Of a stretch of DNA of 49,496 nucleotides, positions 4,335 to 45,840 are shown one piece after another. Position numbers and translations under genes: made by a program. Positions within the stretch are counted from its first letter, which is position 1. Each line of letters begins with the position of its first letter. The notes beneath the pieces are model-generated. The model saw only the letters and a list, made by a program, of their open reading frames with translations. It did not search any database and was not told the DNA's origin. Location of the stretch: positions 1 to 49,496 of IMG/VR virus record IMGVR_UViG_3300038492_000107. One strand, given 5' to 3'. This DNA is from a virus (lineage: Duplodnaviria > Caudoviricetes).

Positions 4335-5243
4335 CTAAACCTCTCTATTTTTTATTTTACTGTAGAACTCTTTAGCGATCGTTAAAGAAGCTCTGGCTTT
4401 AGTCAAGTTAGGATATACGATAACAATAATAGTAGAGTTAATCACAATCAGCTCGAAAGAGGCCACTCCTTTCATGAAAGCTCCTAGTGTGATCTCTCCG
4501 GCAAAGTAAGGGTAGGAGAGAAGTATATAAGGAACTAACGACCCAAGGGCTCCCTTTAAGCGACTAAACAAAGCGAAGTACATCACAACCTTAATGTAGC
4601 GGTAGTATGCAAGAGATATATTCTCAAGCTTTTCTTTGAAAGTAAAACAATCATTACCTGAGTAAATGTAACTCAACGTCTCTCGGAAATACCCTTCTTC
4701 TTTCTGCCATCCTGCATCTGCATTGACCATAGGTCGATTAAATAATACCGCTACAGCAATCATAATACCGGTGTATACAGCAGAAGCTTGAAGTATGACA
4801 GGTTGATCTAAGTTAACGAATATGAGGGAGATGACGATACTGAAAGAGATAAACAACTCAGTGCCGACCATTAAATACATCTCGGTAGCATTCCTTAAAG
4901 CTTCTGTCATAGCTTGGGTATAGTTAGGGATTTCTCTATCGCCCTTTACCCACTTCTTAAAAAGGAGCTTAGTGGAGGCTTTCCTCATTTCGAAAGACAC
5001 TAACTGCCCTGCCCAGACTTTAAGGCCTTGAGAAAACCCAAGGCCTAACATAAGTCCGGTAAAGTAAGTCAGGGACTTATAGAAATTGTCTTGATCTTTA
5101 GCCTCAAGAACATCATAGAAATGCTCCCGCCAAAGGGGAATGATGGCAGTGAAGAAGATCTCCACCACCACCACTAATACCAGAAGAGAAGTAAATAGAA
5201 CGAACTTCGATCTATCTACTTTTGATAAAGCATCTCTAAACAC
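4335..5243 (-). CDS. SbmA/BacA-like (ABC_membrane_2-type) transmembrane transporter domain, no ATPase domain
   Basis: About 6 hydrophobic segments; LWREHFYDVLEAKDQDNF, QKEEGYFRETL and PYILLSYPYFAGEITLG resemble SbmA/BacA/YddA transmembrane-domain motifs; no Walker motifs. Confidence 0.75.
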   Translation of the reverse strand: MFRDALSKVDRSKFVLFTSLLVLVVVVEIFFTAIIPLWREHFYDVLEAKDQDNFYKSLTYFTGLMLGLGFSQGLKVWAGQLVSFEMRKASTKLLFKKWVKGDREIPNYTQAMTEALRNATEMYLMVGTELFISFSIVISLIFVNLDQPVILQASAVYTGIMIAVAVLFNRPMVNADAGWQKEEGYFRETLSYIYSGNDCFTFKEKLENISLAYYRYIKVVMYFALFSRLKGALGSLVPYILLSYPYFAGEITLGAFMKGVASFELIVINSTIIVIVYPNLTKARASLTIAKEFYSKIKNREV

Positions 5244-5245
5244 AA

Positions 5246-6094
5246 CTAATCCTCCTTGTACTTGCTAGGATCGGGTTCCCCTAGGTGAGTAGCGATCCCT
5301 AGTTCGTAAGCTTCTCGGCCTGTGATGATTACATCTCGAGCATGTTTCTTAACAATGTGCACGTAGATATAAGCCTCTGTCATGTCAGGATTCTTCTCTT
5401 GTATTATCTGAACCAGTCTATCAAACCCTTTAGCGTTGGAACCAGCGAGGGACTGATAAGCAGACTCTAGTTCATGCAAAGCTGACTCTTTACCATAATC
5501 AATATAATGAGTTAAGGCCAATTGAAGTGCTATTGGGTCGCTTGTGTCAATGCCCAGCGTGTAAGCGGCTGAAACTATTGGCACCATGGCTTCTTCGTGG
5601 GCCTCCAGAATTCCCTGCTCTCGAAGGAGCTCCATGAGGATGGCCATAGTCGGGTCGTTTACCAACTCCACTGCTTTTTTAAGGCTATGTTCATTGAAAG
5701 CATATTTTCCAGAGTATGCCCCGTGCAGAAGCAACTCGGCGTCCGGATCGATATAACGATCTTGTCCGAGAATGAAAGTCTCCACTCCCATAGATGCAGC
5801 TCGTCTAGGTACGAAGGTGTCTACTGGAACGCCTTTCTTCATAAAATAGGCCATTTCCTCCCCTACGCTAACATACCCTCCTGAAGAAGTTATCTCAACA
5901 AGAGCCCGTTCATTAACTCCTTCATGTTCGTTGATGTCTTTCATATGTTCGACGAACTCTTCTCCTGCCTCGAAGGAGAATCCCGTGTCGAACGTGATTA
6001 TATTTTCATTGCGTTCCACCAAAGGTTCTGGAGTAACGTAGTAAAGAGCTGTTCCCAACAAGACCAGCCCAAGTACCGATACATTAATTCTCAT
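5246..6094 (-). CDS. ClpP/crotonase-fold serine protease with N-terminal signal or membrane anchor
   Basis: ITSSGGYV, AASMG (Ser), LLLHG (His), ARDVIITGREAYELGI (Asp region); hydrophobic N-terminus VLGLVLLGTALYY. Confidence 0.75.
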   Translation of the reverse strand: MRINVSVLGLVLLGTALYYVTPEPLVERNENIITFDTGFSFEAGEEFVEHMKDINEHEGVNERALVEITSSGGYVSVGEEMAYFMKKGVPVDTFVPRRAASMGVETFILGQDRYIDPDAELLLHGAYSGKYAFNEHSLKKAVELVNDPTMAILMELLREQGILEAHEEAMVPIVSAAYTLGIDTSDPIALQLALTHYIDYGKESALHELESAYQSLAGSNAKGFDRLVQIIQEKNPDMTEAYIYVHIVKKHARDVIITGREAYELGIATHLGEPDPSKYKED

Positions 6095-6127
6095 ATTAAT
6101 ATCTCCTATTGAAGGTCACATACTACA

Positions 6128-6160
6128 TATAGTATATAACACAAGGGTCGAACATGTCAA
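6128..6160 (-). promoter_or_regulatory. Sigma70-type promoter upstream of the protease-transporter pair
   Basis: Minus strand TTGACA (6160-6155) followed after 16-18 bp by TATATACT. Confidence 0.55.
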
Positions 6161-6174
6161 CCCTTTTGGTTTAT

Positions 6175-7208
6175 TTAAATTATTGGACATCCTCCCGATC
6201 CACATTCCAAAGACTCTTCTACATCATGCTGCGTCAGGTTCCAATCTACTTCAGTTATCTTACTTTTCATGTCATTATACACTTCTTCTGTTATCTCTTC
6301 TAAAGGAGGTTGCGAGAATCCGTGCTCACTGTGTAACAGAAAGGACACCGACTTAACAGAATTAGCGAAGTTTTCTCTCAGCCACTCCCTTATCTCAGGA
6401 AGCTCCTCCTTTTTATAGTAGACTGTACAAGACACACTGTTGTCCGACCAGTTGGTCTGTAGTTCTTTGACATATTCAAGTTGCTGAATGGCAGTCACAT
6501 CTTTTTCTAAGACTGCGTCTTCAGGAGACTCACAAGGAAAAGAAACTACATTAGTCATAGGATCGTCTACCTCAACAGGGGTTTGGATCACTACGCGGGT
6601 AGGACTTATGACTTTTTGAATGGAAATGTCCATATCTTTTACTGCTTCAAGTCCTCCTTCATCAAACTTATCTTTCACTAAGATCTTTAGTTTCTCGATG
6701 TCAATCTCTTCCACCTTAAGTTGGATGGTTTTTGCTGGCTCCATTGGATATCCACCTTCTTTAATGGCAGGAAGCAAGTGAGAACTTGTCGAGACCCTGA
6801 CGCGTCTGATATAATACCTACTGTATCCAGGATGGACTCCGGATGTCACGCCTGCTAGCAAAGATAATGTGCCAGAAGGCTTGACTGTGGTGAGTTTTAT
6901 ACTCTCGTTGAAACCGTGTTCAGCAGAGTATTTCTTATCTAGTTCGCGTAACTTGACATATGTATCTTTTAACCAAAGCCTTTGCTCCGGTGTGGATTGT
7001 AAGTAGCCTGTTACGCCTATACCCATGCGCATGTTCTTATGAACAATATGTTCTGTCTCTTTTAAGTGACATGGAAGGGCTAGACTGTGTTTATTGATCT
7101 TATATAAAAGCTCTACGATATCCCAAAGCTCCTCCTTTGTTTTGTTATTAGGTAAAAACACTTCTGCCAAACAACAGGTTTCATAATTGGCAAGAGATTG
7201 CTCTGCAC
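6175..7208 (-). CDS. nrdJ: Class II (adenosylcobalamin-dependent) ribonucleotide reductase, exon 2
   Basis: AEQSLANYETCCLAE, TTVKPSGTLSLLAG, DNSVSCTV, C-terminal CGSGGCPI; joins exon 1 in frame to restore NPCAE. Confidence 0.9.
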
Positions 7209-8017
7209 CATTTCTGTTATGCATATACCGTTAAGTGTATGCCTATATATTCCTATATAGATCAGACTATATCACCACCCTTTTGAAAGGGGCTTATCGT
7301 CCGAGCTTGTATTTAAAACTTGGTAAAATATGGTCTTCTACTAAGGACTCGAATTTGGCAACGTCCTTAGTTCTTAAAACTAGGTAATAGTAGTTATTTT
7401 GTCTATTAATATTAAACTCTAGGTCCAACTTCTCTTTGAGGGCCTTCTTGAGCAGCCACTGGTCTCCGTAGCTATAACCTTTGATGTTTAATGTGTATTT
7501 AGGAGACGCTTTGCATCTTTTATCGATGTATCTGCTACCGTCCGCCATAAACATAATAGCTAAGGCCTCTCGGTCTAGTAAGGTAAGCATGTGAGGATCT
7601 ATGACCTTGCGTCCATCGATGTACAACCTTTCCCAAATAGTTTGTAGCTTAGGATGTCGGCTCGATTGTGCCCTGCATTGCGGCTTTCTTATGCAGCCAT
7701 CTGTATTATAATCCTTTCGGTCATATATTTTGAAGCCTATGTTTAAGTCATCAAATGCTTCTTTGATTTTGTTGATGTAGTCTAAGTTCTCTTTAACCAT
7801 ATTAATCGCGAAATAAGCGTTGCCTGCTCCTTTTACGCGATAAAGTCCACCGTCAAAGGCCGAGTAATACCAAAGCCTTTTTACTAAGTGTTTTAAATCT
7901 TTGCTCATAGTCGTTGCACTCCTCATAACGAGTTAGCACAGGATTATCCGGTCTGGACGTCCCCTGTTTTTAGATAAGTTATTCGAAAAGGATCTCTCCT
8001 TTAAGCCGCCTGCTTTG
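7209..8017 (-). mobile_element. Group I intron (809 nt) interrupting nrdJ
   Basis: 5' exon ends in U (AAUCCGU), intron ends in G (AGAAAUG); P1 helix CCGUC/GGCGG with U-G at the splice site; P7 halves CAACGACUA and GAUAUAGUC; splicing restores the TGT Cys codon and a 723 aa protein. Confidence 0.9.
7294..7908 (-). CDS. Intron-encoded LAGLIDADG homing endonuclease
   Basis: Two motif-like segments (WYYSAFDGG and LAIMFMADGS); lies between the two P7 strands; likely start MSKDLK at 7908. Confidence 0.8.
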   Translation of the reverse strand: MSKDLKHLVKRLWYYSAFDGGLYRVKGAGNAYFAINMVKENLDYINKIKEAFDDLNIGFKIYDRKDYNTDGCIRKPQCRAQSSRHPKLQTIWERLYIDGRKVIDPHMLTLLDREALAIMFMADGSRYIDKRCKASPKYTLNIKGYSYGDQWLLKKALKEKLDLEFNINRQNNYYYLVLRTKDVAKFESLVEDHILPSFKYKLGR

Positions 8018-9155
8018 ACGGATTATAACCCTCTACATCAGGGTCAGGATACTGAGTTTCTCCCAGTCGTCCTACGGTCCTAGATAAGGGTAGATTAATT
8101 AAACCGTAAGGCTCTCCATTTCCCATATAACCTTCCCATAAGGCCTCTGGAAGATCATCTATATCCTTGACAACTACAGAGTTGTTTGACATGCTCCTGT
8201 AATATGGAGTAGCGCTTACTTTAACCCTGAGTAAATCAGCAGCAGCTGACTCTCCGTATTCCTTCTCTACTTTATCTCGCATCTCACCTAAATAACCATC
8301 CCATATATAAGAGGGGAGATCATCTTTGGTGTTTACGGTGATATCCCAGCGCTTAGCACTTAAGAAGTTAGTGTCAATAGGGTCGCCTAGAGCGATTTGA
8401 GCCGAGCGCCTTACATTACCTGCAACAACTATACTTCCTATCACGTTCATGATATCTAAAGCGTCTACAGGAGTTATCTTCCTACCTTGTCTGGTCTGTA
8501 GAATACGAGATATCTCTTTAATTCCAGTGATCAAGGGAGCTGGACCGGAAGCTGTGCCGCCGAAGCCTTTTATAACTTCTCCATATTTTCTTACTAGGAT
8601 TGTACTGTAGGTGAAAGACTCCCCTGTAACAAAATGAGATCTCAAAGTCTTGTCTAAGAGTGCGACCCAGCCTTCTCTAGAGTCAGGGACGATGAAGTCA
8701 GCATCTGTAGAGTCTTTGTGAGTTACCTCTACTCCAGGAAGGACTGGAGGTAATCCATACACGTGTTTAAGTTGAATATTGAATCCTACGCCACTTCCTA
8801 GCATCAACGCATCAAAAGCCCATGTAAATGGACGTATCGGATCGTTAACTACTGTGAAAGCACAGTTCTGTAAAGAAAGAAGACCCAGACGATCAACTGT
8901 TGTGGTACCCAATTGCCACAAAAACCTACCGGCCACAGAACCTTTAAGTTCTTTAAGCATACGGTAGGCTTTGTTGTAATATTCCTGGTCTTGAAGGTCA
9001 GGAACCTTTAACTGATCCCTGGCTGCGTTTAACACCCTTTTAATCGTCATGTGGAAAGACTCTGTGTCTTCATAGTCGTCTAATATACGTCTCGCGTATG
9101 TCCTCTTGTATACGAACTCTCCTATAGGTCCGAATGGTGTCTTAATATCTTTCAT
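8018..9155 (-). CDS. nrdJ: Class II ribonucleotide reductase, exon 1
   Basis: YKRTYAR, AGRFLW, LQNCAF, LMLGSGVGF, VVAGNVRRSAQI, SMSNNS, ends EGYNP at the intron. Confidence 0.9.
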
Positions 9156-9304
9156 CTATTTACCTTTCAAATACATCATCCATCCAACAACACTTAACCC
9201 TGCTCCTAGGGCTACCCCTAACCCAGCTACCAAAAGACGCTAGGAACAGCACCCCCAATGATGTGTTATATAAATCTTTCATATCATCTACCTTCCTTTC
9301 GTAA

Positions 9305-10000
9305 TTAAAGGTCCCCGTATAACTCCATAACAAACTTAACAAAAGGACCTCGTTGAATATCTTCAATGCCAAACCTTACGTGTCCTACATACTCTTGATT
9401 CTTATGTGTGTGTAACTTATAAATCAGATCTGCAAGTCCGTTACCTTTAGTTTGTGTCATATCTTCTTGCTTCATATCTCCTAATATAATCAATTGAGAA
9501 GAGTCTTCAATACGTGTTAATAATGTTTTCATCTGCAGCTGGGTGCTGTTTTGAAACTCATCTGCTATAACAACGCTATTTCTGAAGTTACGTCCTCGAA
9601 GAAAGCCTACAGGAATGAATTCGACTTTCTCTTGTATCTCTTCTATATCTTTCACAGATAACATAGGACTGAATTCAGATAAATATTCAATAAACTGTTC
9701 AGCATAAGGCCTTGTTTTCTCGTTAACATCTCCGGGCAAGAAGCCCATCTTCTCATTACCTACAGTGGTTAGAGGCCTGGTGAAGATGATCTTATCTTTT
9801 TTCCCGGAAAGCACTAAAGATAAAGCGTGGTGAACTGCTAAAAATGTCTTACCTGTACCAGCCAATCCCTCCATAATAACAACTTGGAAATCATCCATCA
9901 ACCCCATAGCCACTCGTTGATTATCTGTGGCAGGAGTTATAGGCGCTATAGATAGCTTAAACGGCCTGTTCTTTCCGACTTTCTTGGATGCTTTAGCCAT
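9305..10000 (-). CDS. phoH: PhoH-family ATPase
   Basis: GLAGTGKT, GFLPGD..EK, FLRGRNF, IADEFQN, LLTRI, GDMKQ.D. Confidence 0.92.
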   Translation of the reverse strand: MAKASKKVGKNRPFKLSIAPITPATDNQRVAMGLMDDFQVVIMEGLAGTGKTFLAVHHALSLVLSGKKDKIIFTRPLTTVGNEKMGFLPGDVNEKTRPYAEQFIEYLSEFSPMLSVKDIEEIQEKVEFIPVGFLRGRNFRNSVVIADEFQNSTQLQMKTLLTRIEDSSQLIILGDMKQEDMTQTKGNGLADLIYKLHTHKNQEYVGHVRFGIEDIQRGPFVKFVMELYGDL

Positions 10001-10015: not shown

Positions 10016-10324
10016 TTAATTAACTCTATTTAGATGTTTTTGTGACTTGTACCTAAAATACTTAAGGTAAGAACCGGCTAGCTTAAGAATGGGCTCACTA
10101 TCAGGCAGGCTCCTCATTATAAGCTCATCCACGATCGTCTGTAGAACAGCTATGATCTTATGCCTCGCCTCTGCGCTAATATTAATAGCCCCTACAATAT
10201 CCCTGGTCTGAGGGTCTATGGCTACAAAGCCTCCCAAATCCTGAATATATTCTTCGATCTCGGCCACGAACTCTTCTACTGAAGAAGCTTCTTGATAAGG
10301 TAGATATTCTAAATCTTCATTCAT
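10016..10324 (-). CDS. Hypothetical protein
   Basis: 102 aa ORF with AAGGAG RBS, in operon. Confidence 0.7.
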   Translation of the reverse strand: MNEDLEYLPYQEASSVEEFVAEIEEYIQDLGGFVAIDPQTRDIVGAINISAEARHKIIAVLQTIVDELIMRSLPDSEPILKLAGSYLKYFRYKSQKHLNRVN

Positions 10325-10347
10325 GTCTTACGCTCCTTCTTGCTTTA

Positions 10348-10740
10348 TTAGTCACTTGTCTTTTCTAAAACCCACTCCATAGGGATTTCTTTGTCATGGA
10401 ATAGGAATCCATGTTTATGGCACCAGTCCGCATAAGTTGTCTTTGAATTTTTGTGTATTTTCTTGTTGCTGTTATCGAATACGAAACGCAAGTCTATATC
10501 AGGATGCTGATCTTTTATGAGGAGATGCTTTGCTCTATCTGCCGCATCAAAGTATCCTTTGATCTCTATGATAATACCATTACTTAATAGTATATCTGGT
10601 GTGTAGACAGAAGGTTTCTTCTCATATTTTAACTTAACCGTTTCGTACTCATAAGACACTCCTTGCTCTTTAAGTTTGTTTGTGACTTTCTCCTCTAAAC
10701 TGCTTCTATACTTAGATAGATTTTTTCTCTGCCTTCTCAC
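10348..10740 (-). CDS. T7 endonuclease I-like Holliday junction resolvase
   Basis: YRSSLE, YTPD, IIIEIKG, KHLLIKDQHPDIDLRFVF, TYADWC.KHGF. Confidence 0.93.
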   Translation of the reverse strand: MRRQRKNLSKYRSSLEEKVTNKLKEQGVSYEYETVKLKYEKKPSVYTPDILLSNGIIIEIKGYFDAADRAKHLLIKDQHPDIDLRFVFDNSNKKIHKNSKTTYADWCHKHGFLFHDKEIPMEWVLEKTSD

Positions 10741-11360
10741 GGTACCCTCAATTCTGCCATAAGATTCTTAGGGAGCACCTCTTTGTCAGCAAACCCATAA
10801 CGAACAAGGTCATAAGAGTCCATGAACAAATCTTTTCTGCCAAAAAATGTGTTACGTACTACGAACTCACTTTGTTTTGTCTTTTTCATGTAGTTACTAA
10901 CTAAATTCTCTTCTAGGATCTTCATATGCTCCATAGAGTCTTTGATGTTATGGTAACTTCCTCCAGTGCTTGTGGCGAACGTGTGAGTCATGCCGATGGA
11001 GTCGGGTAAAACTATCCTTTTGGTACCATTAGCTAACAACATCAATCCTGCTGAATGGGCAGAAGTGTTAGCGACAGTCACTACAGGTTTACCTATAACT
11101 TCCAACAAATTGACTGCGGCGAAGGCTTCTTCTAAGCTCCCTCCTGGTGAATTGATCATTAGAATGAGGTGCGTAGGGTCTATTTCAGGGTTGTTTACGA
11201 GCATCTCAGCTTGTATCCCTAATAAACTCTTAACCAAATCATCTTTACCTAGCTCTCCGTTAACACTTAGAAGGATGGGAGAGGTGTCCGGACCTTCATC
11301 CAAGACACTCTCTTCACTTCCTTGAGAAAATAGTTCTAATTGAGTGTATTCTTTTGTCAT
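10737..11360 (-). CDS. clpP: ClpP-like protease proteolytic subunit
   Basis: LMINSPGG, AHSAG (Ser), GMTH (His), RKDLFMD (Asp region), YGFAD. Confidence 0.85.
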   Translation of the reverse strand: MTKEYTQLELFSQGSEESVLDEGPDTSPILLSVNGELGKDDLVKSLLGIQAEMLVNNPEIDPTHLILMINSPGGSLEEAFAAVNLLEVIGKPVVTVANTSAHSAGLMLLANGTKRIVLPDSIGMTHTFATSTGGSYHNIKDSMEHMKILEENLVSNYMKKTKQSEFVVRNTFFGRKDLFMDSYDLVRYGFADKEVLPKNLMAELRVP

Positions 11361-11371
11361 AATACTTATCC

Positions 11372-11695
11372 TTAGGTTAGAAGGGTCATTAAAGTTTGTA
11401 TGTTACGTGTTAACATAACACTTTGTGTTTGAAGAGACGTTAGTTCTTTTTGAACACAAGGTAGAATCTTTCTCTTTCCAGTTTTACTTTTACGCAGCCT
11501 AGCTTCTACCACATCTAACTTGCTCCAGACAGTGCTGCGGACTTTGAGAAGAGCTTCCATCTCAGATCTAATCCCGAATCGGTTACCTCTCATCGCATTG
11601 ATCGAAAGTAAGACACCGTCTTTATCGAAAGGAAGTCCTACCTTACGAGCAAGGAATTTAACACCTATTTCATATTCAGTACGCTTCTTTTTCAT
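11372..11695 (-). CDS. Hypothetical basic protein
   Basis: 107 aa ORF with GGGAGA RBS. Confidence 0.6.
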   Translation of the reverse strand: MKKKRTEYEIGVKFLARKVGLPFDKDGVLLSINAMRGNRFGIRSEMEALLKVRSTVWSKLDVVEARLRKSKTGKRKILPCVQKELTSLQTQSVMLTRNIQTLMTLLT

Positions 11696-11771
11696 GATAA
11701 TCTCTCCCTATATCTCTTCTTATTCTATAGGTACTACTTATAGTACCATAAAACACTCAAATAATCAAGGC

Positions 11772-12029
11772 TTATATTACTTTATTTAATCTTTCTAAAG
11801 TGTGTTGTGACAGATCTGATAGAGCCATGATCTCTGCCGTAAAATTATTTCTAGGTAACACGTCAGAGTGCTCCATGATGTCCCTCATCTTAGCTACAAA
11901 GAATTCAACTTCTTCCAAACGGAGGTTTATGTCTTCTTTTGTTGTTGAGTCAATAGGGTCGTGCCCCAGACCTTCGTCCACTACATCTTCCTGTGAAAAA
12001 TTATTAAACATCATACTATATCGATTCAT
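11772..12029 (-). CDS. Hypothetical acidic protein
   Basis: 85 aa ORF with AGGAG RBS. Confidence 0.6.
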   Translation of the reverse strand: MNRYSMMFNNFSQEDVVDEGLGHDPIDSTTKEDINLRLEEVEFFVAKMRDIMEHSDVLPRNNFTAEIMALSDLSQHTLERLNKVI

Positions 12030-12038
12030 GATAAACTC

Positions 12039-12392: not shown

Positions 12393-12404
12393 ATCTCCTA
12401 CTAG

Positions 12405-12611: not shown

Positions 12612-12640
12612 GATAAAATCTCCTGTTGCTTATGCCTGTT

Positions 12641-12682: not shown

Positions 12683-12701
12683 AGCTAGAAGTAAATTATT
12701 T

Positions 12702-12911: not shown

Positions 12912-12912
12912 G

Positions 12913-14110: not shown

Positions 14111-14482
14111 ATGACAGTCCTACCTACAGGCTTATATGAGGAGGCCATAAAAGAATTGGTGTTAGAAGGACATGCGAACCCGGGATTCGATCCCTACAAC
14201 AAGTATGAGGGTGTTCAGACTTTTTACATGGGGAGTTTAGCTTCTTTTATCCTGTACCGAGTACTGGAATCACACATAATGATTGAGCTTATTTATGTGT
14301 CTAAAAAACGAAGAGGGAGCGGAGCGGGAAAGAAGATACTGTCTGAATTTGTTGCTTTAGTTCGCAGTAAAGCATCTTGGCCTAAAGCGATAAGGGCAGA
14401 GATAATAGAAGGAAACCAAGGATCTTTTTCACTATTCAAAGAGTTTAGAACCAGGCAAGTAGAGAAAGAGATCACAGTGTAA
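14111..14482 (+). CDS. GNAT-family acetyltransferase
   Basis: IELIYVSKKRRGSGAGKKIL (acetyl-CoA motif A, RxxGxG) and GNQGSFSLF (motif B-like). Confidence 0.8.
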   Translation: MTVLPTGLYEEAIKELVLEGHANPGFDPYNKYEGVQTFYMGSLASFILYRVLESHIMIELIYVSKKRRGSGAGKKILSEFVALVRSKASWPKAIRAEIIEGNQGSFSLFKEFRTRQVEKEITV

Positions 14483-36239: not shown

Positions 36240-36244
36240 GCTGA

Positions 36245-37540: not shown

Positions 37541-37561
37541 ATCTTTGTTTACCTTCTCTGT

Positions 37562-38989
37562 TTAGACTACTGTGAACCTCACTTTGCGTTTCTGAGATAA
37601 TGCTCTATGCAGGTACTGAGTAACACTGTCAACGATATCATCATGAGGTTGATAACCAAACTCTGTGATCTCTTGAATGAAACTCAACTTCCAACTAGCC
37701 TTCTCTGGAATAAGTACCTTGCCTGCTTCAAACAAGCCCGCAACAATCTCTAACCGTTCTTCTTTAGACCCTGGCATGTCTCTACCGGGTATCACTGGAA
37801 TGACGGGTAGTTGTGTGAATCTCTTCAGATCCTGCACCAATGACTGTCCAGTAGCTTTGTCTTCCACAACAACTTCACTAGCAGGCTTCTCTTGATAAGC
37901 ACTGGAGATTAATTGTTTCAAGGCTGTGTACTCTAGCTTCTTTCTGATCATATCTACTAGATAGTAACCGTCTTCGCATTCAGCCCACAAAGTACCAACG
38001 GAGTAGTCATTCTTCTGACCTGTCTTGAAGGCTGTGTCCCATGACCAGGAGTACTTCTTTACGGCAGGCAGCTCTTTATACTCTCTTATCCACTCATTCT
38101 TGATGATAGATCCTTCAGCTGCTACAGGATGTTGTTGTAACTGCGAGGCTATGAACTGTGAACCGTTTGTCTTATAGCCTTCTATGGCTTCTGGGGTAAA
38201 GTACTGAGGGAACATAAGTTCTCCCTCTTCTGTTCGAGGATCTTTCCAGTCTAGTTTTGTTTTGCTTCTTTGGTTACCGTCCCATGTCATAGGAATGATT
38301 AACTTATCCCAAGTGTCGTCTTCTAGGTAAATACCGCTTAGATCTTGGTGATGTAGTCTCTGCATAACAATAACAACTCCGCCTTGTCCTGGAGGACTTA
38401 AGCGGGTCATGAACTGGTTTTGAAATGAATCTATCACAGTGTTGCGTTCTATTTCGCTGGTGGCCTTCTTAGCATTCATAGGGTCATCAGCTATTAGAAG
38501 CTCTGCTGTGTGTCCGGTGGCACCTGAGGTGATACCACGTGCTAATCGATGGCCTCCTTGCGTATTAGCAAAGTAACGCTTCTGGGCCTGATCGTCAGCT
38601 AACTGGAACTTGTTATCTTTGAATAATGATTTATACCAATCTGTGTTTACCAATGCTCTCATTGACCAAGCGTCTCTTAGGGCTAAGGCCTCGTCATAAG
38701 AGGTAGTGATAATCTTCTTAGAGGGAGTGTTCAACCAACACCATGCAGGGAACAAGGTGGAACATAGTGTAGACTTAGAACAACGGAAAGGTATGTTAAT
38801 GATTAACCTCTTAATCTTACCTTCTGCTACTGCTTGTAAGTGGTCTGCTATAGCATCTATGTGCCAGTTCCATAACAAGTCTACTGAAGGTTCTACGTGA
38901 ACCCAGGCTTGTTTAATGAACTCTGCGAAGGAGCGTCTGGCTAGTTCTTTATCTATTTGCTCAATTGAAGGAAGAGCATCTGAATGCAT
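37562..38989 (-). CDS. terL: Terminase large subunit
   Basis: LIINIPFRCSKS, LIADDP, IVMQRLH..DLSG, SWDTAFK..NDYS, VEDKATG, HDDIVDS. Confidence 0.95.
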   Translation of the reverse strand: MHSDALPSIEQIDKELARRSFAEFIKQAWVHVEPSVDLLWNWHIDAIADHLQAVAEGKIKRLIINIPFRCSKSTLCSTLFPAWCWLNTPSKKIITTSYDEALALRDAWSMRALVNTDWYKSLFKDNKFQLADDQAQKRYFANTQGGHRLARGITSGATGHTAELLIADDPMNAKKATSEIERNTVIDSFQNQFMTRLSPPGQGGVVIVMQRLHHQDLSGIYLEDDTWDKLIIPMTWDGNQRSKTKLDWKDPRTEEGELMFPQYFTPEAIEGYKTNGSQFIASQLQQHPVAAEGSIIKNEWIREYKELPAVKKYSWSWDTAFKTGQKNDYSVGTLWAECEDGYYLVDMIRKKLEYTALKQLISSAYQEKPASEVVVEDKATGQSLVQDLKRFTQLPVIPVIPGRDMPGSKEERLEIVAGLFEAGKVLIPEKASWKLSFIQEITEFGYQPHDDIVDSVTQYLHRALSQKRKVRFTVV

Positions 38990-39014
38990 GTATGCCTCCT
39001 TGTTAAAATGTGCT

Positions 39015-39476
39015 TTATTTCCAATGATTGAGTTTAGCTTCTTTTGCTAAGGCGTCTACCGCATCATTGTAATGGTTGTTGCTGTGACCTTTAATCCATT
39101 GAAGAACTATCCTGTCAGCAAGGGTAGCTTTAAGTTCTTGAAGCTGTATCCATAAGTCTTTGTTTTTAACATATGAAGGCCTGCCTTTATCTAGTCTCCA
39201 CCCGTCCATCCATGAATTATAGCCGTCTACAACGTACTTACTGTCACAGTGTATGGTTGCCTTGGTGTCGTCATCTAGGCTCTTCAGGGCTGCTATAAGG
39301 GCCGTGAGCTCCATTCTATTGCAGGTAGTGTCGTCCTCTGATCCAGTGATTGTTGTAGTGTCAGGAGTGCAGACGTAGTTTAATCCTTCACCTGACTGTA
39401 GAATAAGCACTGCCCAGCCTCCTCTGCCTACACCTGAAGTGCAGGAACCGTCCGTATAGATAGTTACTTCTCTCAT
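39015..39476 (-). CDS. rnhA: Ribonuclease HI
   Basis: IYTDGSC, TCNRMEL, CDSKYV, VKNKDLW, WIKGHS, NDAVDALA: all acidic catalytic positions present. Confidence 0.95.
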   Translation of the reverse strand: MREVTIYTDGSCTSGVGRGGWAVLILQSGEGLNYVCTPDTTTITGSEDDTTCNRMELTALIAALKSLDDDTKATIHCDSKYVVDGYNSWMDGWRLDKGRPSYVKNKDLWIQLQELKATLADRIVLQWIKGHSNNHYNDAVDALAKEAKLNHWK

Positions 39477-39505
39477 AGGACTGTCCTCTCTCTCTCTCTC
39501 TTATC

Positions 39506-40045
39506 TCATTGATCGTCTTCTGCTTCTATGACCATAGCTTCTGTTGCTGTTTTCTTTAAGATATCTTTAACAGTTACTAACTCGTCTATACTTAATGAAG
39601 ATAGATCATGGTTAATGGTGTTAGTGGTCTTTGATTCCATATTAACATCTGCGTTAATGTCTAATGCTGATTTAGCTTTACCTTCTAGTCTGTCGAATAT
39701 AAGCTCTATTGCTTTTAAGTTACCGTCCAGTCCTCTCTTAACTAATGAAAGCATTAATAACTCACCTGTAGAACAATACTCTAGCTCACCGGTTAAGGGG
39801 TTCTTCCTGTCTAACTTATAATCTAACATCTTGAGTAAGATATTCTTTAGTCTAGGTCTACGCTTCCTGTTATGTGAATCAAGTTGAGGATACTGTTTTT
39901 GTGAAGATAATGAATTAAGTTCTTCTGTTTCTATAGTTTCTTCAAGTTTCTCTTTGTCTGCTCTATTAAGCTTTCGCTGAACTTTACCATTAGTAACATG
40001 CTCTAAAGTATCCCAAGTTACTGTTTCTTCCTTTTCTTTAGTCAT
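39506..40045 (-). CDS. Probable terminase small subunit
   Basis: First gene of the packaging operon; GNLKAIELIFDRLEGK and DLSSLSIDEL segments. Confidence 0.65.
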   Translation of the reverse strand: MTKEKEETVTWDTLEHVTNGKVQRKLNRADKEKLEETIETEELNSLSSQKQYPQLDSHNRKRRPRLKNILLKMLDYKLDRKNPLTGELEYCSTGELLMLSLVKRGLDGNLKAIELIFDRLEGKAKSALDINADVNMESKTTNTINHDLSSLSIDELVTVKDILKKTATEAMVIEAEDDQ

Positions 40046-40376
40046 AACTTGAATTCCTTTTCTTATTATTTACTTATTGGTAATGTTACCAGGCTTTTTA
40101 TTTACAAAGAGTTAACTCTAAGTTACTTTATAGTAACAGGAACTAACTGTTGAGCAAGTAACATTTGGTTAATGTATTTTTAATCGTGTTGTGTATGTGC
40201 TTTCTTTGTTACTGACTAAGTAATTGATTTTATTTAATAATTTATTTGAGCAGGTACTGGTTACGGTGAATTAACTACAACCAGCAAAAGATACTATATG
40301 ATATATATAAGTCAATTTTCACACTTTTGTCCCCACCGCATATACCATAAATTGCATAATAGGTAATTTAAGATAC

Positions 40377-40410
40377 AAAAAAACCCTGAAGGAACAGTGT
40401 CCAACAGGGT
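40377..40410 (-). terminator. Intrinsic terminator separating the metabolic block from the packaging genes
   Basis: Minus strand ACCCTG...CAGGGT followed by a T-run. Confidence 0.7.
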
Positions 40411-40641
40411 GGTTAGATGAAAAAGACAGTATTCTCTTTCTAATATTTCCTTTTCTGTACTATAGAGTTTCTGCATCGGTTACTGAACGCTTCTCCAATG
40501 TACTTGAAGAACGAGGAAGGAAGAGTATCAGTAGCCTTATAATAACAAGCCCAGTACTTATTTTCGATTATGAAAGCACTTTTAGCTTCTTTGTGTTTCC
40601 TGCTCCTGCTTAGTTCCATAAGCTCTTGCCTCCCTCCTTTG

Positions 40642-41004
40642 TTATTTTTTGACTAGCTTCATTGTGGTTTCGATGGTCATGTCTTCTGGAATAGTCTGCT
40701 CAATCAATTTGATGGCCTCGTCTCGTGTGACCCTTCCTTCAGACATAAGCAGATCAGCTTCTTGTACCATACCAAGTTTATTTTGGGCTTCTTTGTCTGT
40801 GTGGTCTTTCTTGACTCGTTCTTCGAAGTATTCTACTGCCGCAGCAGTCAAGCGAGAAAGATAAGCCAGTTTAGTAATCATATTGGTTTGATAATCTGTT
40901 AAGTATTCACCGCTTAACCAAGTTCTGCCTCCAGGTTCTTTTGTATGTTGTGTGGCTTCTTTACGTTGATCCGCTGTCATGTTCAGGTTTGTACTAGTAC
41001 TCAT
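40642..41004 (-). CDS. Hypothetical protein
   Basis: Likely start MSTSTNLN after AAGGAG RBS. Confidence 0.65.
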   Translation of the reverse strand: MSTSTNLNMTADQRKEATQHTKEPGGRTWLSGEYLTDYQTNMITKLAYLSRLTAAAVEYFEERVKKDHTDKEAQNKLGMVQEADLLMSEGRVTRDEAIKLIEQTIPEDMTIETTMKLVKK

Positions 41005-41088
41005 ATATATATATTCTCCTTTTATGGTTACTACAATAAATCGTATAACATTCTTATTACTGTTTGTCAATAGTTAAGTATAAGGTAA

Positions 41089-41748
41089 TTAGAATTGCCC
41101 TATATATAAAACTTTACCTCCTTCTGGAGTCACTTCAATAGTGGCCTCCACGTGAGAGGATAAGCCCCCTTTGGTTGTACGCCACGTATCCTTGTTGAAT
41201 GAGTCCCCTGCTTCCGTTAGAAGAGGCTCAAGCGCCATACGCATACCTGTTTCAAGAGTGACGTCAGCGTAAGAAGGTTGTGGATCGTGGAAGTTACGTA
41301 TAGAAGGTTTCATATGAATCTCTGAGCCTATGAAGTGTCCACCCAACTCTCTAATCACTTGTACTGTGTCGTCCTTCTTTATCTGGGCGTGAATGGCCTT
41401 GGAGATGTCTGACAACATGTTACCGGCCTTAGCCGCTTTTATGCCTGCCTTGAGCGCTGCTTCTCCTGTTGCCACTATATTAGGGTTATGTTCCTTTTTA
41501 TACACCTGAGATATAGCGGCATCAAACCACAACCCATCGTACTTAAACCACGAGTCAAATTTAATCAGTTCTCCAGGCTTGAACACTAGGTCGTCTTTAA
41601 GGTGCGCTACACCGTCATCAGACGTCAAAGCCCAATCCCTGTCTTCCATATCCTTTGTGGCTTCTAAGAACGTCTCAGCCACCTCTTGTGTGGTCCTAAG
41701 ACTACCTTCCTTTATGCCTGCTTTAATTCTGTGTAGCACATCAATCAT
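41089..41748 (-). CDS. map: Methionine aminopeptidase-like enzyme (M24A fold)
   Basis: Metal ligands KFD, WFD, GGHFIG, ALEP, SHVE plus VAH and EIHM histidines; likely start MIDVL. Confidence 0.85.
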   Translation of the reverse strand: MIDVLHRIKAGIKEGSLRTTQEVAETFLEATKDMEDRDWALTSDDGVAHLKDDLVFKPGELIKFDSWFKYDGLWFDAAISQVYKKEHNPNIVATGEAALKAGIKAAKAGNMLSDISKAIHAQIKKDDTVQVIRELGGHFIGSEIHMKPSIRNFHDPQPSYADVTLETGMRMALEPLLTEAGDSFNKDTWRTTKGGLSSHVEATIEVTPEGGKVLYIGQF

Positions 41749-41933
41749 ATAATAAACCTTTCCTCTATCTTCCAAAATTTAGTTCGTAATGTGATTAGGC
41801 TGATCTCCGCAACCTCAGGAACAGGGTCGGTATTACCTCGGATGCGGAAATCCGCTGGCACAACCGTGAAGGTTGCTTTATATAGATGCCTACCGTTATC
41901 GTAATAAATATGATAAGCCTTTCTTTTTATCAT
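41745..41933 (-). CDS. Small hypothetical protein (62 aa)
   Basis: ATGA overlaps with both the deaminase and map genes. Confidence 0.6.
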   Translation of the reverse strand: MIKRKAYHIYYDNGRHLYKATFTVVPADFRIRGNTDPVPEVAEISLITLRTKFWKIEERFII

Positions 41934-42283
41934 AAATAAGGTTCTGGTAACCATTCTCGTATGAACCTTCCGCAAAGAAAGGTGCTACCACAAGCAAACT
42001 CTGACACAAGTTGCCTGCATCCTCCACAAGGAATGATGTCAAACTGCTTACCTTGCTTCCTCGCTATTACTTGAAGGCTTCTTATCTTCATTGAAGGGCC
42101 CTCCGCTACTACGGCTGTGAATATAGCCACCCGCTCTGCACATACCGACAGAGTAGGGCAACTAGACTCTACGTTAACTCCGAAGTACTCCCCGCCTCGT
42201 TCTGTTTGAAGGCGAGCAACTACTGCGGTCTTTCTAGCCTTAGCTTTCTCGAAGTAAGGAAGCGCCCAGTCAGTGTCAGACAT
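41930..42283 (-). CDS. cdd: Cytidine deaminase (homotetrameric, three-Cys Zn type)
   Basis: GVNVE, CAERVAI, PCGGCRQLVSEF, WLPEPY. Confidence 0.88.
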   Translation of the reverse strand: MSDTDWALPYFEKAKARKTAVVARLQTERGGEYFGVNVESSCPTLSVCAERVAIFTAVVAEGPSMKIRSLQVIARKQGKQFDIIPCGGCRQLVSEFACGSTFLCGRFIREWLPEPYL

Positions 42284-42377
42284 CTAAGTCGCACCATTCG
42301 CTCAACAAATCAAACACTCCTTCAGACTCTAAAAGACGAAGATACTCCTCATACCCTAAAAAACTCCCTTGCATAGA

Positions 42378-43295
42378 CTACTTCCTTTCTTTAATGATAA
42401 ATTTAAGAACAGTTGCCACTTCTTTAAGGCCTTCCCCGCTAACGTCTCCTTTATCGTCTGTGTCCATCGCAGCAATATCTAAGTGATGTAAGTTGGTCCC
42501 TTCTTCCACAAAGTTCTTTAGGAACGAGTAAGCTTCTTGTGAGCCTCCTTTACGTGCTGCGTTGGTGATATCTGCCACTCGGCGTTCACTTTTAACCCCT
42601 TCATCATATAATGTGTGTGTCGGCATAGGATAAAGCATGGTTCCTTTATAGAACTCGTCCATTACATGATGTTGCAGGGCTCTGTTATGTGTATGCAGAA
42701 GGCCTGCTTTAACAGGGGAGACTACCATGACCGCGTGACCCGTCAATGTGGCCACAGACACCATTTCTGTGCCTTCTCGTGTGGTACTAGCCTCTGCCAG
42801 TATATCAGCCAATCCTAGCCTGCCTTCTGCGTCAGTATGGTCTATCATTACCCTAAGGCCATTCTTACTTGTCAATACTTCACCGTTGACGTAAGATTCT
42901 TCACTGACCATATTATTAATAAGGAATATGATGGTCGGGATCTTATGGTGCTTTGCTAAGACTACTGAGAGCATGGCTCCATATTTGTCGTTAAACATGT
43001 CGCCCATGTGAGGGTAAGGTTTCATATACATCCCTCCCGAGTCATAGACAACGCCTTTACCGACTAAAGTCACCGGCATATCTGAATCATAGTTTAGTTT
43101 TACAACATATCCTCGTTTCTTAGATCCTTTATTTACTTGATAGGCTAAGGGATAATTCTTCTCTGTTATCTCTTCTACGCTATAATCAACCTTACCTAAG
43201 TATTCTTTAATATTGTCTAGATTCTTCCCTGGATCAGTAGACTTAAACTCCACTAATTCCGTAAGTTCCTTTTTCATCTGTTTAGTGATCTTCAT
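42378..43295 (-). CDS. M17 leucyl aminopeptidase, catalytic domain only
   Basis: LVGKGVVYDSGG..MKP, MFNDKYGA, HTDAEGRL.LAD, VATLTG, HLDIA. Confidence 0.9.
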   Translation of the reverse strand: MKITKQMKKELTELVEFKSTDPGKNLDNIKEYLGKVDYSVEEITEKNYPLAYQVNKGSKKRGYVVKLNYDSDMPVTLVGKGVVYDSGGMYMKPYPHMGDMFNDKYGAMLSVVLAKHHKIPTIIFLINNMVSEESYVNGEVLTSKNGLRVMIDHTDAEGRLGLADILAEASTTREGTEMVSVATLTGHAVMVVSPVKAGLLHTHNRALQHHVMDEFYKGTMLYPMPTHTLYDEGVKSERRVADITNAARKGGSQEAYSFLKNFVEEGTNLHHLDIAAMDTDDKGDVSGEGLKEVATVLKFIIKERK

Positions 43296-43435
43296 ACTAT
43301 CAAACCCTCTCTTTATAAGTGATTAGGAAATAAGTACCTGCGACATAGGATCCTGGTAATAATAACTCCATCATACTCATATATACCTTTCTTCTACCGA
43401 AGTGGTTAGTGCGTGTGTTAGGAGAATCTCCCACA

Positions 43436-43470
43436 TCACATAAGATAGTGTTTTAAAATCGTTTGTCAAG
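43436..43470 (-). promoter_or_regulatory. Early-type promoter upstream of the aminopeptidase-deaminase-map operon
   Basis: CTTGAC-N16-CTATCT on the minus strand, same pattern as promoters at 12.66 and 15.41 kb. Confidence 0.7.
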
Positions 43471-43589
43471 GTAGTTTAAGAAACTTCATATAAACACTCA
43501 TACAGAAGCAAGTATCTCCAGGTACTGTAACATACCTAGAAACTACTATTACTTCTGTATGGGCCTGTATGGGCCTTATTTAAGCCATC

Positions 43590-43799
43590 CTAAGCACTAT
43601 AGTGTTTTTTCATTTGATTAATCAATAGATCGTACGATTCTTGGGATATCTCAAGAGTCTCGCCTCCTTTAAGAAGGATGACGTACGAACCTTTTTGTTT
43701 CACTACTAACTGAATCTCGCTCATATTCACAACCCCACTGTCAGTCAAGTAAGCAAATACAACAAGTGAGAGCCCTGTAATAAATTTCCTTAATACCAT
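43590..43799 (-). CDS. Small hypothetical protein
   Basis: 69 aa ORF with AAGGAG RBS and hydrophobic N-terminus. Confidence 0.5.
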   Translation of the reverse strand: MVLRKFITGLSLVVFAYLTDSGVVNMSEIQLVVKQKGSYVILLKGGETLEISQESYDLLINQMKKHYSA

Positions 43800-43910
43800 G
43801 ATACACTCCTTTTAAAATTAACGACCCTTAGATGACACCAAGAAATAAATGGCTATAGAGTATAAAACAATTAAACCAGCTTCAACCATAAGAAACTACC
43901 TCCTGATCTA

Positions 43911-44363
43911 TTATTTACCGGTACTACCGAAGCCACCATGACCTCGTTTAGTTGGCGTATTGGGAACGCTCTCTGAATCGATCTCTCGGACCAACACAGG
44001 CATTGAGCGCAGGGCGCCTAGCACCATCTGAGCGATACGATCGCCTCGTGATATGTGATAGGTCTCATCCCCTAAATTCATTAGAATAACCTTAATCTCC
44101 CCTCGATAGTCTGCATCGATAGTTCCAGGAGAGTTTAACACGAATACTGCATGCTTGGCAGCCATACCTGACCTAGATCTGATTTGAATGTCTACTCCGT
44201 AAGCGTCTTCTACAGACTCTACTGCCAGTCCCGTGCGAACCAAGACGTGGTGACCTGGAGCAATCGCAACATCTTCAATAGCATACAAGTCTTGTCCTGA
44301 AGCCAGTCTAGACCCGACTGAAGGAACTTTAGCTCTCCGATCCACTTTCTTTAATATCAGCAT
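43911..44363 (-). CDS. dut: dUTPase (trimeric)
   Basis: ASGQDL, RSRSGMA, PGTIDADYRGE, GDRIAQ, RGHGGFGSTG; likely start MLILKK. Confidence 0.95.
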   Translation of the reverse strand: MLILKKVDRRAKVPSVGSRLASGQDLYAIEDVAIAPGHHVLVRTGLAVESVEDAYGVDIQIRSRSGMAAKHAVFVLNSPGTIDADYRGEIKVILMNLGDETYHISRGDRIAQMVLGALRSMPVLVREIDSESVPNTPTKRGHGGFGSTGK

Positions 44364-44487
44364 TAGGTGTCTCCTTATATTTAACATCAGCTCCGCATGT
44401 GGTACATTTATCATAATCAAAACATCGACCGCATCCAATACAGAAATGCCCATCCTCATCGAGCTGACATATCCCTATACAATACAT
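44329..44487 (-). CDS. Small Cys-rich protein, DUF1289-like (52 aa)
   Basis: Manual translation MYCIGICQLDEDGHFCIGCGRCFDYDKCTTCG...; AAGGAG RBS. Confidence 0.65.
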   Translation of the reverse strand: MYCIGICQLDEDGHFCIGCGRCFDYDKCTTCGADVKYKETPNADIKESGSES

Positions 44488-44488
44488 T

Positions 44489-44773
44489 CTACATCTCCTT
44501 AACTACTTTGTCAATAGTTTTATTAAGTCCTTTTTCAATTGTTCGTTGGTGTCGCGACCAAATCACTACTCCTACTAAATCAAAGCATAAGTAAGTAAGT
44601 TGAGACAGGTATATCCCTGGCTGACCTGTAACGAAGGCATACACCGACATAGCTGAACAAGCTACTGCGTGTATGATGAGGGAGTGCACCATGTATTTAG
44701 GTAGTAGAGACATAATCCCTACAGAAACCACACCAAGTGCACCCCCAAGATATTGTAGGGCTAATATATCCAT
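44489..44773 (-). CDS. Small polytopic membrane protein
   Basis: Three to four short hydrophobic segments; AAGGAG RBS. Confidence 0.6.
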   Translation of the reverse strand: MDILALQYLGGALGVVSVGIMSLLPKYMVHSLIIHAVACSAMSVYAFVTGQPGIYLSQLTYLCFDLVGVVIWSRHQRTIEKGLNKTIDKVVKEM

Positions 44774-44867
44774 GTCCTCTGTCTCCTTTTATTTACTAGG
44801 TTTGTTTTTCCGTAGGGAGATATCTAGTATTAGATACTTTATAAACTTACTTGTAAAGCTACTCACT

Positions 44868-45398
44868 CTAATCCCCTGAATATAAATTACGGAATACGCG
44901 CAAATACTTCTCTCGACTGGCCATTCCATTATACCCTCCGTTAATGCGACGAGTGACTTGACGAAAATCCCCTTCATCCGCATAATTGTTAAGTTTTCGG
45001 TCTTGCCAGTACACTAGAGAAACTTCCAAGGCTAGCGGCATGCGTTCCACGATAACCGGGTTACTTACTAAGTCCAAACCTAATTTCTCTCCGTACACAG
45101 TATAGTTATGTCGGCCTGTCAACTGTATAAGACCTCGCCCTCTAAATCGCCTACCGTCACCAGGCTCTGTGTTACCTAAATCACTACGACCTTCATAAGC
45201 ACTGCCTGAAGCGTATTCCCGGGTAGTTCGGAAACCGTCAGACTCGTGTGCCAACTGAGCTAATAACATATTACGTCGTTGATTTGTTGTTATCTCGTAC
45301 TTCTCAAATAAATCCTGATGTTTAACTAACCCTGCTAAGATAGAAGGATTAGCATATTTGAAGTGAGGTACTAAGTCGTTATAGTCTAGTTTTTTCAT
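44868..45398 (-). CDS. Glycoside hydrolase family 19 endolysin
   Basis: LAQLAHES, YEGRSDLGN..PGDG.RFRGRGLIQLTGR.NY, TRRINGGYNG; likely start MKKLD. Confidence 0.93.
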   Translation of the reverse strand: MKKLDYNDLVPHFKYANPSILAGLVKHQDLFEKYEITTNQRRNMLLAQLAHESDGFRTTREYASGSAYEGRSDLGNTEPGDGRRFRGRGLIQLTGRHNYTVYGEKLGLDLVSNPVIVERMPLALEVSLVYWQDRKLNNYADEGDFRQVTRRINGGYNGMASREKYLRVFRNLYSGD

Positions 45399-45840
45399 AG
45401 TCTCTGTTCCTGTCTTTAAAGGTGATTCCATTAAGGTGATCTATCTCGTGTTGAACAATCCGCGCTGCATAATCCTTAAAAGTAGTTTCTACTACAGCTC
45501 CTCCCATATCCCTATACCGTACTGTTATTTTAGTAGATCTAGGTACAGGAAGTATCTCATTAGGATAAGATAAGCACCCCTCATTACGTATTTTAGTAGA
45601 TCCGCTCTTTTTTATTATTTCTGGGTCTAAGAGGACCGTTACATTGTCGTGAAGTGATTCCAGGACCACTGCCACTCGCTGATCTACTCCGATTTGATTA
45701 GCAGCAAGTCCGACCCCTCCTTCGGTAATCATGACCCCTAACATGTCTTGAATAAGTTCAGTCAGTTCTGATCTCTCTAAGTCCACATCCTTTAAGCGTC
45801 TGTGGAGAAGTGGGTCGTCTCCGGAAATAAGTTCTAGCAT
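45379..45840 (-). CDS. def: Peptide deformylase
   Basis: GVGLAANQ, EGCLS and QHEIDH signature motifs. Confidence 0.96.
   Translation of the reverse strand: MLELISGDDPLLHRRLKDVDLERSELTELIQDMLGVMITEGGVGLAANQIGVDQRVAVVLESLHDNVTVLLDPEIIKKSGSTKIRNEGCLSYPNEILPVPRSTKITVRYRDMGGAVVETTFKDYAARIVQHEIDHLNGITFKDRNRDYEKTRL

Follow-up and report, generated by a model that had tools for sequence, protein, structure and literature searches.

Lactococci obtain amino acids from protein by means of an outside protease (PrtP), a peptide importer (Opp) and cytoplasmic aminopeptidases (PepN and PepC). The same logic can be read from a few genes in the DNA described here, IMG/VR record IMGVR_UViG_3300038492_000107 (49,496 nucleotides, called the window as a whole), where a ClpP-fold protease with an export-type N-terminus is encoded next to an SbmA/YddA-type transporter and an M17 aminopeptidase is encoded elsewhere. 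The lactococcal system, however, is bacterial, Gram-positive and ATP-driven, and none of its parts is homologous to those of the phage module. Tentatively, the phage protease and importer may well harvest envelope or outside protein as amino acids for phage growth.

Pectobacterium Fus and E. coli Ydd/PqqL also encode a periplasmic protease together with an import route for protein nutrients, consisting of an M16 protease and a TonB-dependent outer-membrane transporter that serve bacterial iron piracy (PMC6793856, in part). Here, in contrast, the protease has a ClpP fold or belongs to M48, and the carrier is a lytic-type phage. No Pfam match to an M16 protease or a TonB-dependent transporter was found in the window or in 207 early and middle open reading frames (ORFs) of its relatives, mostly of 95 amino acids or longer, and no outer-membrane part was found. 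Among inner-membrane transporters, E. coli SbmA and S. meliloti BacA (SLiPT; PDB 7p34 and 9g3d) have a six-helix type IV ABC-like core without a nucleotide-binding domain (NBD), whereas YddA/BclA-type ABC proteins have an NBD, fused or in the operon.

The starting bases of the window recur at position 49398 when its ends are compared, so that it is a complete, circular phage genome of about 49,397 bp, that of an uncultured aquatic phage. Pfam and PHROG annotation of the window identifies an HK97-type head, a Mu-type contractile tail, polA and a class II ribonucleotide reductase (RNR). No cultured relative was found, the best polA match having 25% identity. The comparison rests on 15 IMG/VR records with an SbmA-like gene, each searched whole; one of them (G015, a 19-kb fragment, 5% complete, with a canonical SbmA and without ClpP) was dropped before the 14-record counts, and six of the 14 are complete genomes.

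The transporter and its paired protease

The transporter gene encodes a protein whose AlphaFold2 (AF2) model (pLDDT 92) has the six transmembrane (TM) helices of a type IV ABC-like core, and the top Foldseek match is E. coli SbmA (TM score 0.79, 17% identity). There is no NBD, either fused or in the operon as in YddA/BclA: the window holds no ABC ATPase match. The coupling helices are missing too, the model loops 101-107 and 195-201 being non-helical, and the coupling-loop spans are of SbmA length, 28 and 40 residues vs 36-37 and 48-51 in 12 YddA-type ABCs. Unlike SbmA and BacA, the phage-borne protein lacks TM0: the model shows no additional N-terminal helices (TM0a/TM0b), and family members are 266-311 amino acids long. 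The glutamate ladder (E193/E203/E269/E276/E287/E378) is partial, with three of six residues kept; the family is acidic at E193 (73/73), E269 (70/73) and E276 (72/73), and basic at R280 (73/73). The E203 register is hydrophobic, the E378 position holds K, Q or R, and the equivalents of E287 and Y368 are also missing; E28 and E129 are invariant instead (73/73). YddA also lacks E203 and E287 (PMC13316013, in part), and when 401 Pseudomonadota genomes were searched with the family profile, full YddA-type ABCs scored best (E 1.6e-25; frames of 566-746 amino acids make up the top 12, 11 of them with a Walker A motif). At the E269 position the phage protein is acidic like SbmA and unlike the 12 YddA-type ABCs. 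Position 176 is acidic in 70/73 phage sequences vs 1/12 of these ABCs, and the phage family forms its own clade apart from SbmA-type sequences. With two SLiPT features absent, the transporter looks like the product of a separate NBD loss. On sequence and model it is likely to work like an NBD-free SbmA-type importer; transport would be inward, with proton coupling as the putative energy source and peptides as the putative substrate.

At 90% identity the family falls into about 75 clusters, whose contigs do not exceed 53 kb, and 89 representatives have E values of 1e-30 or below; in the top Atlas cluster, 83% of the members with a record are viral. A pattern scan of GTDB found none, and no match was present among 50,697 GenBank phage records. 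A conserved membrane ORF of no family (45854-46378 in the window) directly adjoins the transporter gene in L081/L082, L085 and L091, and it may be another component of the module; an Atlas search with it gave nothing above 0.83.

The protease gene lies 3 bp upstream of the transporter gene. Its CLP_protease match is below cut-off (E 0.0025), and the ClpP fold is backed by Foldseek and by an AF2 model (pLDDT 67.5) in which the helical insert is modelled poorly. The triad is S101-H124-D254; S101 and H124 are present in 15/15 exported ClpP folds and D254 in 11/15. The N-terminus has a hydrophobic core and a positive-inside charge, and the location predicted from it is not cytoplasmic. The protein is predicted to be N-in/C-out and periplasm-facing, where it would act as a protease. 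All 14 signal-bearing ClpP folds that were measured have a hydrophobic core preceded by a charge of 0 to +6. Several resemble classical signal-peptide proteins and many have cysteine pairs: 11 of the 14 carry two to four cysteines or one, the window protein none.

Of the 14 records, 11 encode a signal-bearing ClpP fold; its distance from the transporter is no more than 700 bp in seven and no more than 4 kb in ten. Two complete genomes (G007 and G011) are without it and have a signal-peptide M48 peptidase there. An exported protease of one type or the other is therefore found in 13/14 records and in 6/6 complete genomes, the miss being a 12.9-kb fragment; with G015 counted, protease and transporter occur together in 13/15. 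The pairing extends across three transporter lineages (the main family, the clade of G002 and the SbmA-type of G014), and the paired phages differ in head and tail modules. As a control, the transporter was found in 0/20 terminase-related records, which are mostly fragments. The narrower module of protease and importer is real and undescribed. A literature search found no phage route for harvesting protein outside the cytoplasm and no description of a phage SbmA, M17 or methionine aminopeptidase (MetAP), although supplementary tables of auxiliary metabolic genes may list such genes. The one relevant paper concerned a cyanophage PDF, and SbmA/BacA and the protease-associated import systems are the nearest systems described.

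Two exported ClpP folds each are encoded in G006 and G013, and the ClpP-fold tree (165 columns, weakly resolved) suggests two origins of the export signal. A DUF7338 protein is encoded between exported ClpP fold and transporter in G013 (34810-35415) and is also present in G014 (8655-9377).

The protease and transporter genes are headed by a promoter-like site at 6160, which sits in the 80-bp gap ahead of the protease, beside a hairpin (6143-6165). A second site, at 43469, heads the series M17, cytidine deaminase, ORF 41745 and MetAP (Table 1). Only perfect TTGACA motifs are over-represented in the stretches between genes, which make up 7.3% of the genome and hold 12 of the 38 sites; promoter scans overall are barely above shuffles (26 vs 21.5; 47 vs 39).

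Table 1. Positions of the genes and promoter-like sites discussed in the text
Feature	Position	Strand	Basis
SbmA/YddA-type six-helix inner-membrane transporter, 302 amino acids	4335..5243	-	Pfam SbmA_BacA PF05992 E 8e-7; AF2; Foldseek
ClpP-fold serine protease, N-terminal signal/anchor, helical insert	5246..6094	-	Pfam, AF2, Foldseek, residues
Sigma70-like promoter site TTGACA-18-TATACT, 11/12	6131..6160	-	consensus match only
Cytoplasmic ClpP, accessory	10737..11360	-	Pfam CLP_protease E 3e-21
GNAT acetyltransferase, early region	14111..14482	+	Pfam E 3e-5
Divergent MetAP-like M24 peptidase, 219 amino acids from the likely start ATG 41748	41089..41748	-	Pfam, ORF 41089-41775, E 7e-20
Cytidine deaminase	41930..42283	-	Pfam
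M17 aminopeptidase, catalytic domain only, 305 amino acids	42378..43295	-	Pfam E 4e-54
Sigma70-like promoter site TTGACA-16-TATCTT	43442..43469	-	consensus match only
Peptide deformylase, short C-terminus, accessory	45379..45840	-	Pfam PDF E 3e-40

Aminopeptidases and the other members of the seven

A preliminary description of this genome had joined seven genes (peptide deformylase or PDF, MetAP-like M24, M17, GNAT, the two ClpP folds and the transporter) into one candidate system for N-terminal processing and peptide turnover. All seven are real ORFs, located where it had placed them and matched to their families by Pfam. The peptidases keep their catalytic motifs, as it had stated. This is true of M24, M17 and both ClpP folds, and of PDF as well; homologues share the residues (columns were checked against PDB alignments). 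Earlier details are now extended by the scatter of the genes over five separate places, the export or anchor signal on the protease, the M17 without N-terminal domain and the deaminase between M17 and MetAP. Round the circle, the gaps between the seven are 3, 4643, 2751, 26607, 630, 2084 and 7892 bp. As a single set the seven do not hold together, since they occur patchily and independently in the relatives: PDF in 1/15, M24 in 0/15 and M17 in 4/15 of the SbmA-like records, GNAT in 3/14 and cytoplasmic ClpP in 4/14. Among the six complete relatives, PDF, GNAT and cytoplasmic ClpP each occur once, M17 and M24 not at all. PDF, MetAP and GNAT are accessories acquired separately.

The closest complete relative, G003, has a podovirus-type tail and middle genes up to 88% identical to those of the window. 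It carries ClpP, exported ClpP, SbmA, PDF, GNAT and deaminase at 31-65% identity and is without M17 and MetAP, the other genes of interest all being present. Codon-position identities between the two genomes (0.34-0.41 at position 3, 0.64-0.80 at position 2) fit purifying selection on the six shared genes, with ThyX as control. A contig from the likely source run, one of a set of DNA runs from an aquatic-metagenome study, matches positions 39000-44929 of the window without differences and so links the M17 and MetAP genes with the terminase region, which argues against chimeric host DNA, although this contig is not independent of the window.

Like PepA and PepB (PDB 1gyt, 6cxd), the phage M17 has all seven metal and catalytic residues (K80/D85/K92/D103/D155/E157/R159, kept in 7/7 aligned sequences). 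Unlike them, the phage enzymes have 291-315 amino acids vs about 430-530, and the N-terminal domain (PF02789/PF21337) is almost gone: the GKG motif lies near residue 80 vs about 200-290 in full-length forms. Nine short M17s form one phage clade of their own (support 1.0; 46 sequences, 291 columns), and the M17 of G009 is a second, separate truncation. From the M17 side, 39 loci included three contigs with a short M17 (L001, L023 and L032), each with the transporter no more than 5 kb away, and L001 has the order exported ClpP fold, transporter, small membrane ORF, M17. M17 is an optional third part of the module. The 11 GenBank phage M17 matches (34% identity or less) look like host DNA, judging from record type. 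Shared contigs are also suggested, unchecked, by protein entries that list the same contig: P0123 (MetAP) and P0129 (transporter), of 49,881 bases, and P0006 (short M17) and P0136, of 6,044 bases.

The M24 protein resembles E. coli Map, a type I MetAP: 38/38 PDB matches are MetAPs, and the five metal ligands, both catalytic His and the pocket Trp are kept (H58/D74/D85/H147/H154/E183/E210 in 4/4 aligned sequences, metal ligands intact). It differs in scoring 94 bits vs the TIGR00500 cut-off of 171 and in a pocket whose N-terminal loop is unaligned and in which Cys is replaced by Ala and Phe by Ile/Leu; in the window, Ala and Ile stand at what we take to be positions C70 and F177 of E. coli Map. 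There are only three close homologues, all of them proteins without DNA context, and the MetAP alignment search found no viral locus. The MetAP-like M24 is a rare accessory with putative Met specificity. The deaminase, M17 and MetAP are likely to share one transcript.

PDF alone had correctly been described as known in phages; matches exist in 171 GenBank phage records. All three motifs (GxGxAAxQ, EGCLS and HExDH) are present in the window PDF, which ends 9 residues past the residue aligned with E. coli 145 (of 168); three motifs and a shortened C-terminal helix are likewise features of the PDFs of cyanophage S-SSM7 (PMC3660681, in part) and Vibrio phage (orf60T, PDB 5mtc). Nothing notable sets the window PDF apart. 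In L081, PDF lies beside both ClpP folds. The probable role of PDF and MetAP is to help process the phage's own proteins, or else to free blocked N-termini so that peptidases can act.

The cytoplasmic ClpP has the ClpP fold and the triad S103-H126-D177 (S103 and H126 in 9/9 homologues, D177 in 8/9) and scores 45.5 vs an NCBIfam equivalog cut-off of 308.6. Pfam found no AAA partner for it in the window; a host partner is possible. Its PHROG label of prohead protease was rejected because an S78 protease (34439-35359) is present in the head module. The only homologue found of the window GNAT is in G003, the GNATs of other relatives being non-homologous, and no evidence was found that it belongs to the module.

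Cytoplasmic degradation sets recur in the relatives in several forms. The ORFs scanned include a ClpX-like ATPase with an IGF-type loop in 8/14 records, a ClpA-like protein in one, HslV-like proteins in six and a PrkA-DUF444-SpoVR trio in three (G002 10244-14872, G009 34708-39414, G013 22962-29066). The trio records are of 36-44 kb, and each also carries a short M17, an SbmA-like gene and an exported ClpP fold; in G013 the ClpX-like, HslV-like and M17 genes adjoin one another. GenBank phage matches to PrkA at 50% or more are mostly in huge phages. The reverse test from the M17 side, which covered 21 of 36 loci, found canonical SbmA in 5 of the 21 M17-bearing records. All five are unrelated jumbo-phage records or fragments with a full-length M17 and cytoplasmic ClpP; ClpS lies beside SbmA in three, PDF occurs in three and M24 in none. 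In L145, L146 and L147 (G027, G021 and G020), canonical SbmA lies by ClpS, NifU and an Fe-S assembly protein, with the full-length M17 elsewhere. The common theme across the phage group is bulk protein turnover rather than N-terminal maturation.

Possible function of the protease and importer

In the proposed mechanism, the exported ClpP-fold protease would cut periplasmic or outside protein into peptides, the ATPase-less SbmA/YddA-type transporter would import them, and the short M17, ClpP and host peptidases would trim them to amino acids for virion synthesis. Peptide recycling had been one of three alternatives offered earlier, and it is supported in the narrower form of exported protease plus SbmA-like importer, with M17 optional and the cytoplasmic protease kit variable. 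The M48 swap, the three lineages, the short-M17 link, the alternative cytoplasmic sets, the jumbo phages with SbmA and M17, the controls and purifying selection together make the module quite possible as a working unit. It is more doubtful, if conceivable, that uncultured phages of 40-50 kb, as a broad group, carry a dedicated protein-cannibalising line in which the exported protease (ClpP fold or M48) feeds an ATP-free importer of independent evolution and a minimal M17. Breakdown of host DNA is known to supply phages with nucleotides. Should the module act in the proposed way, a phage route for taking protein from outside the cytoplasm is added, a protein counterpart of that breakdown in which the host periplasm or surroundings would be drained to amino acids; the putative benefit would be phage replication in starved or amino-acid-dependent hosts. 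A minimal, separately derived transporter without NBD also lets one ask what SbmA-type proton coupling requires in the way of glutamates and domains, and is a clean case for the physiological role of SbmA, called unclear in PMC13316013 (in the part available). The ClpP fold predicted to face the periplasm and the M17 of catalytic domain only are natural minimal enzymes.

Several points weigh against this harvesting. The M48 swap amounts to one event, because the transporter tree places G007 and G011 as sisters, and the pairing is partly shared descent, the window, G003, L078 and L081 on the one hand and G004 and G005 on the other grouping in both trees. An exported ClpP fold was found in only 6 of 18 metagenome loci, mostly short, within the DNA fetched; in L091 none lies in the 10 kb upstream or the 8 kb downstream of the transporter, and in G010 it lies 26 kb away. 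The loci themselves were the source of the local ClpP profile, and Pfam by itself matches neither of two exported proteins (G009 26244 and G013 36222). M17 occurs in 0/6 complete relatives, so the three-step line is not obligatory, and the five jumbo records with M17 and SbmA show cytoplasmic ClpPs only (10 of 11 matches fetched). As for the transporter, every Glu-to-Ala mutant of the SbmA ladder abolishes transport (PMC8442886, in part), and with the equivalents of E203 (in register), E287, E378 and Y368 missing, proton-coupled import is not assured.

A different account takes the genes as independent accessories for proteostasis and cofactor uptake, protease and transporter being merely co-inherited in a replication-region block. 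The patchiness of PDF, M24, M17, GNAT and ClpP, their five locations with separate promoter-like sites, the partly congruent trees and a spacing that varies up to 26 kb are all as expected from it; the occurrence of an exported protease in every complete genome, a non-homologous substitute included, the adjacency in three transporter lineages and the transporter on all three M17-side contigs are not, and this account appears unlikely. If the transporter merely imports cobalamin for the class II RNR encoded just upstream, the order of genes in the window, G003, L077 and L078, where the pair follows RNR, would be explained, and the related Rv1819c does transport cobalamin (PMC13316013, in part). 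The protease would stay unexplained, however, and 5/6 complete relatives have no RNR match (by BLAST with the window RNR, and by Pfam in early and middle ORFs of 95 amino acids or more), which makes cobalamin uptake highly improbable. Equally slight is the chance that takeover of N-terminal maturation or N-degron fate is the unifying purpose, as the first of the earlier alternatives had it. The window does have both PDF and a MetAP-like enzyme in intact form, PDF lies by the ClpP folds in L081 and ClpS by SbmA in three jumbo records. On the other side, the two enzymes are under different promoter-like sites, MetAP occurs in 0/15 relatives and 0/5 jumbos and PDF in 1/15 relatives, the Met-pocket region of MetAP is unaligned, Pfam matches neither ClpS nor an AAA unfoldase in the window, and there is no role for an exported protease and an importer. 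Co-occurrence and linkage of PDF, MetAP, adaptor and unfoldase as one phage unit were not found. Given the patchy occurrence and the lack of either aminopeptidase in G003, this alternative does not account for the set; an N-terminal pathway is not supported and is to be dropped.

Two further accounts keep the pair together and give it another task. The protease may cut a specific envelope target, such as a host receptor or sensor or the ejected proteins of a second phage, while the transporter clears fragments or alters permeability, so that the pair remodels the envelope or excludes superinfection. The host-type promoter-like site directly ahead of the pair and the two exported ClpP folds in relatives such as G006 and G013 agree with this, and the periplasmic proteases PqqL and FusC are narrow in specificity (PMC6793856, in part). 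It leaves the short-M17 link and the recurrent cytoplasmic degradation sets unexplained, a single specific target for both ClpP-fold and M48 enzymes is implausible, and we regard it as improbable. A comparably small likelihood attaches to import and destruction of antimicrobial peptides of a eukaryotic host or of competitors, by which the infected cell would survive, as BacA does for rhizobia. This is what remains of the third earlier alternative, altered handling of peptide antibiotics, the activation of microcins being without any specific support. SbmA and BacA do import antimicrobial peptides, and BacA is required for host colonisation (PMC13316013, in part), and the ankyrin-repeat genes of G011 hint at a eukaryote-associated host. 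However, SbmA makes E. coli sensitive rather than protected (PMC8442886, in part), Microcin C enters mainly through YejABEF, SbmA being used by long analogues only (PMC8323819, in part), no Pfam match to microcin biosynthesis or immunity genes is present in the window, and ankyrins occur in 1/14 records. Harvest of protein for amino acids is the reading that we prefer.

Further observations on the genome and its relatives

The window combines a Mu-type contractile tail with an HK97 head, vs the podovirus-type module of G003, despite middle genes of up to 88% identity. Part of a tail fibre is 72% identical in G003 and G005, which hints at common hosts. The PrkA of G002 has 54-57% identity to assorted Gammaproteobacteria (18 loci), a host pointer that is not decisive.

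In the window the class II RNR (6175-9155) is interrupted by a LAGLIDADG homing endonuclease (7294-7926), probably an intron, and is divided between two ORFs; in G003 it is uninterrupted (634 amino acids). An RNase H gene (39015-39476) lies between the small and large terminase genes. The early region contains a 40-bp near-identical direct repeat (14858-14897 and 15460-15499) amid several TTGACA promoter-like sites. A small PnuC-like membrane protein (44489-44773) and the cytidine deaminase, both also in G003, are a possible nucleoside-salvage counterpart. Among the relatives, the ankyrin-repeat genes of G011 lie at 30240-31897, G010 has a GroEL-type chaperonin (997-2580), G007 has an L,D-transpeptidase (4294-4782), and four (G001, G009, G011 and G012) encode small sigma70-like proteins.

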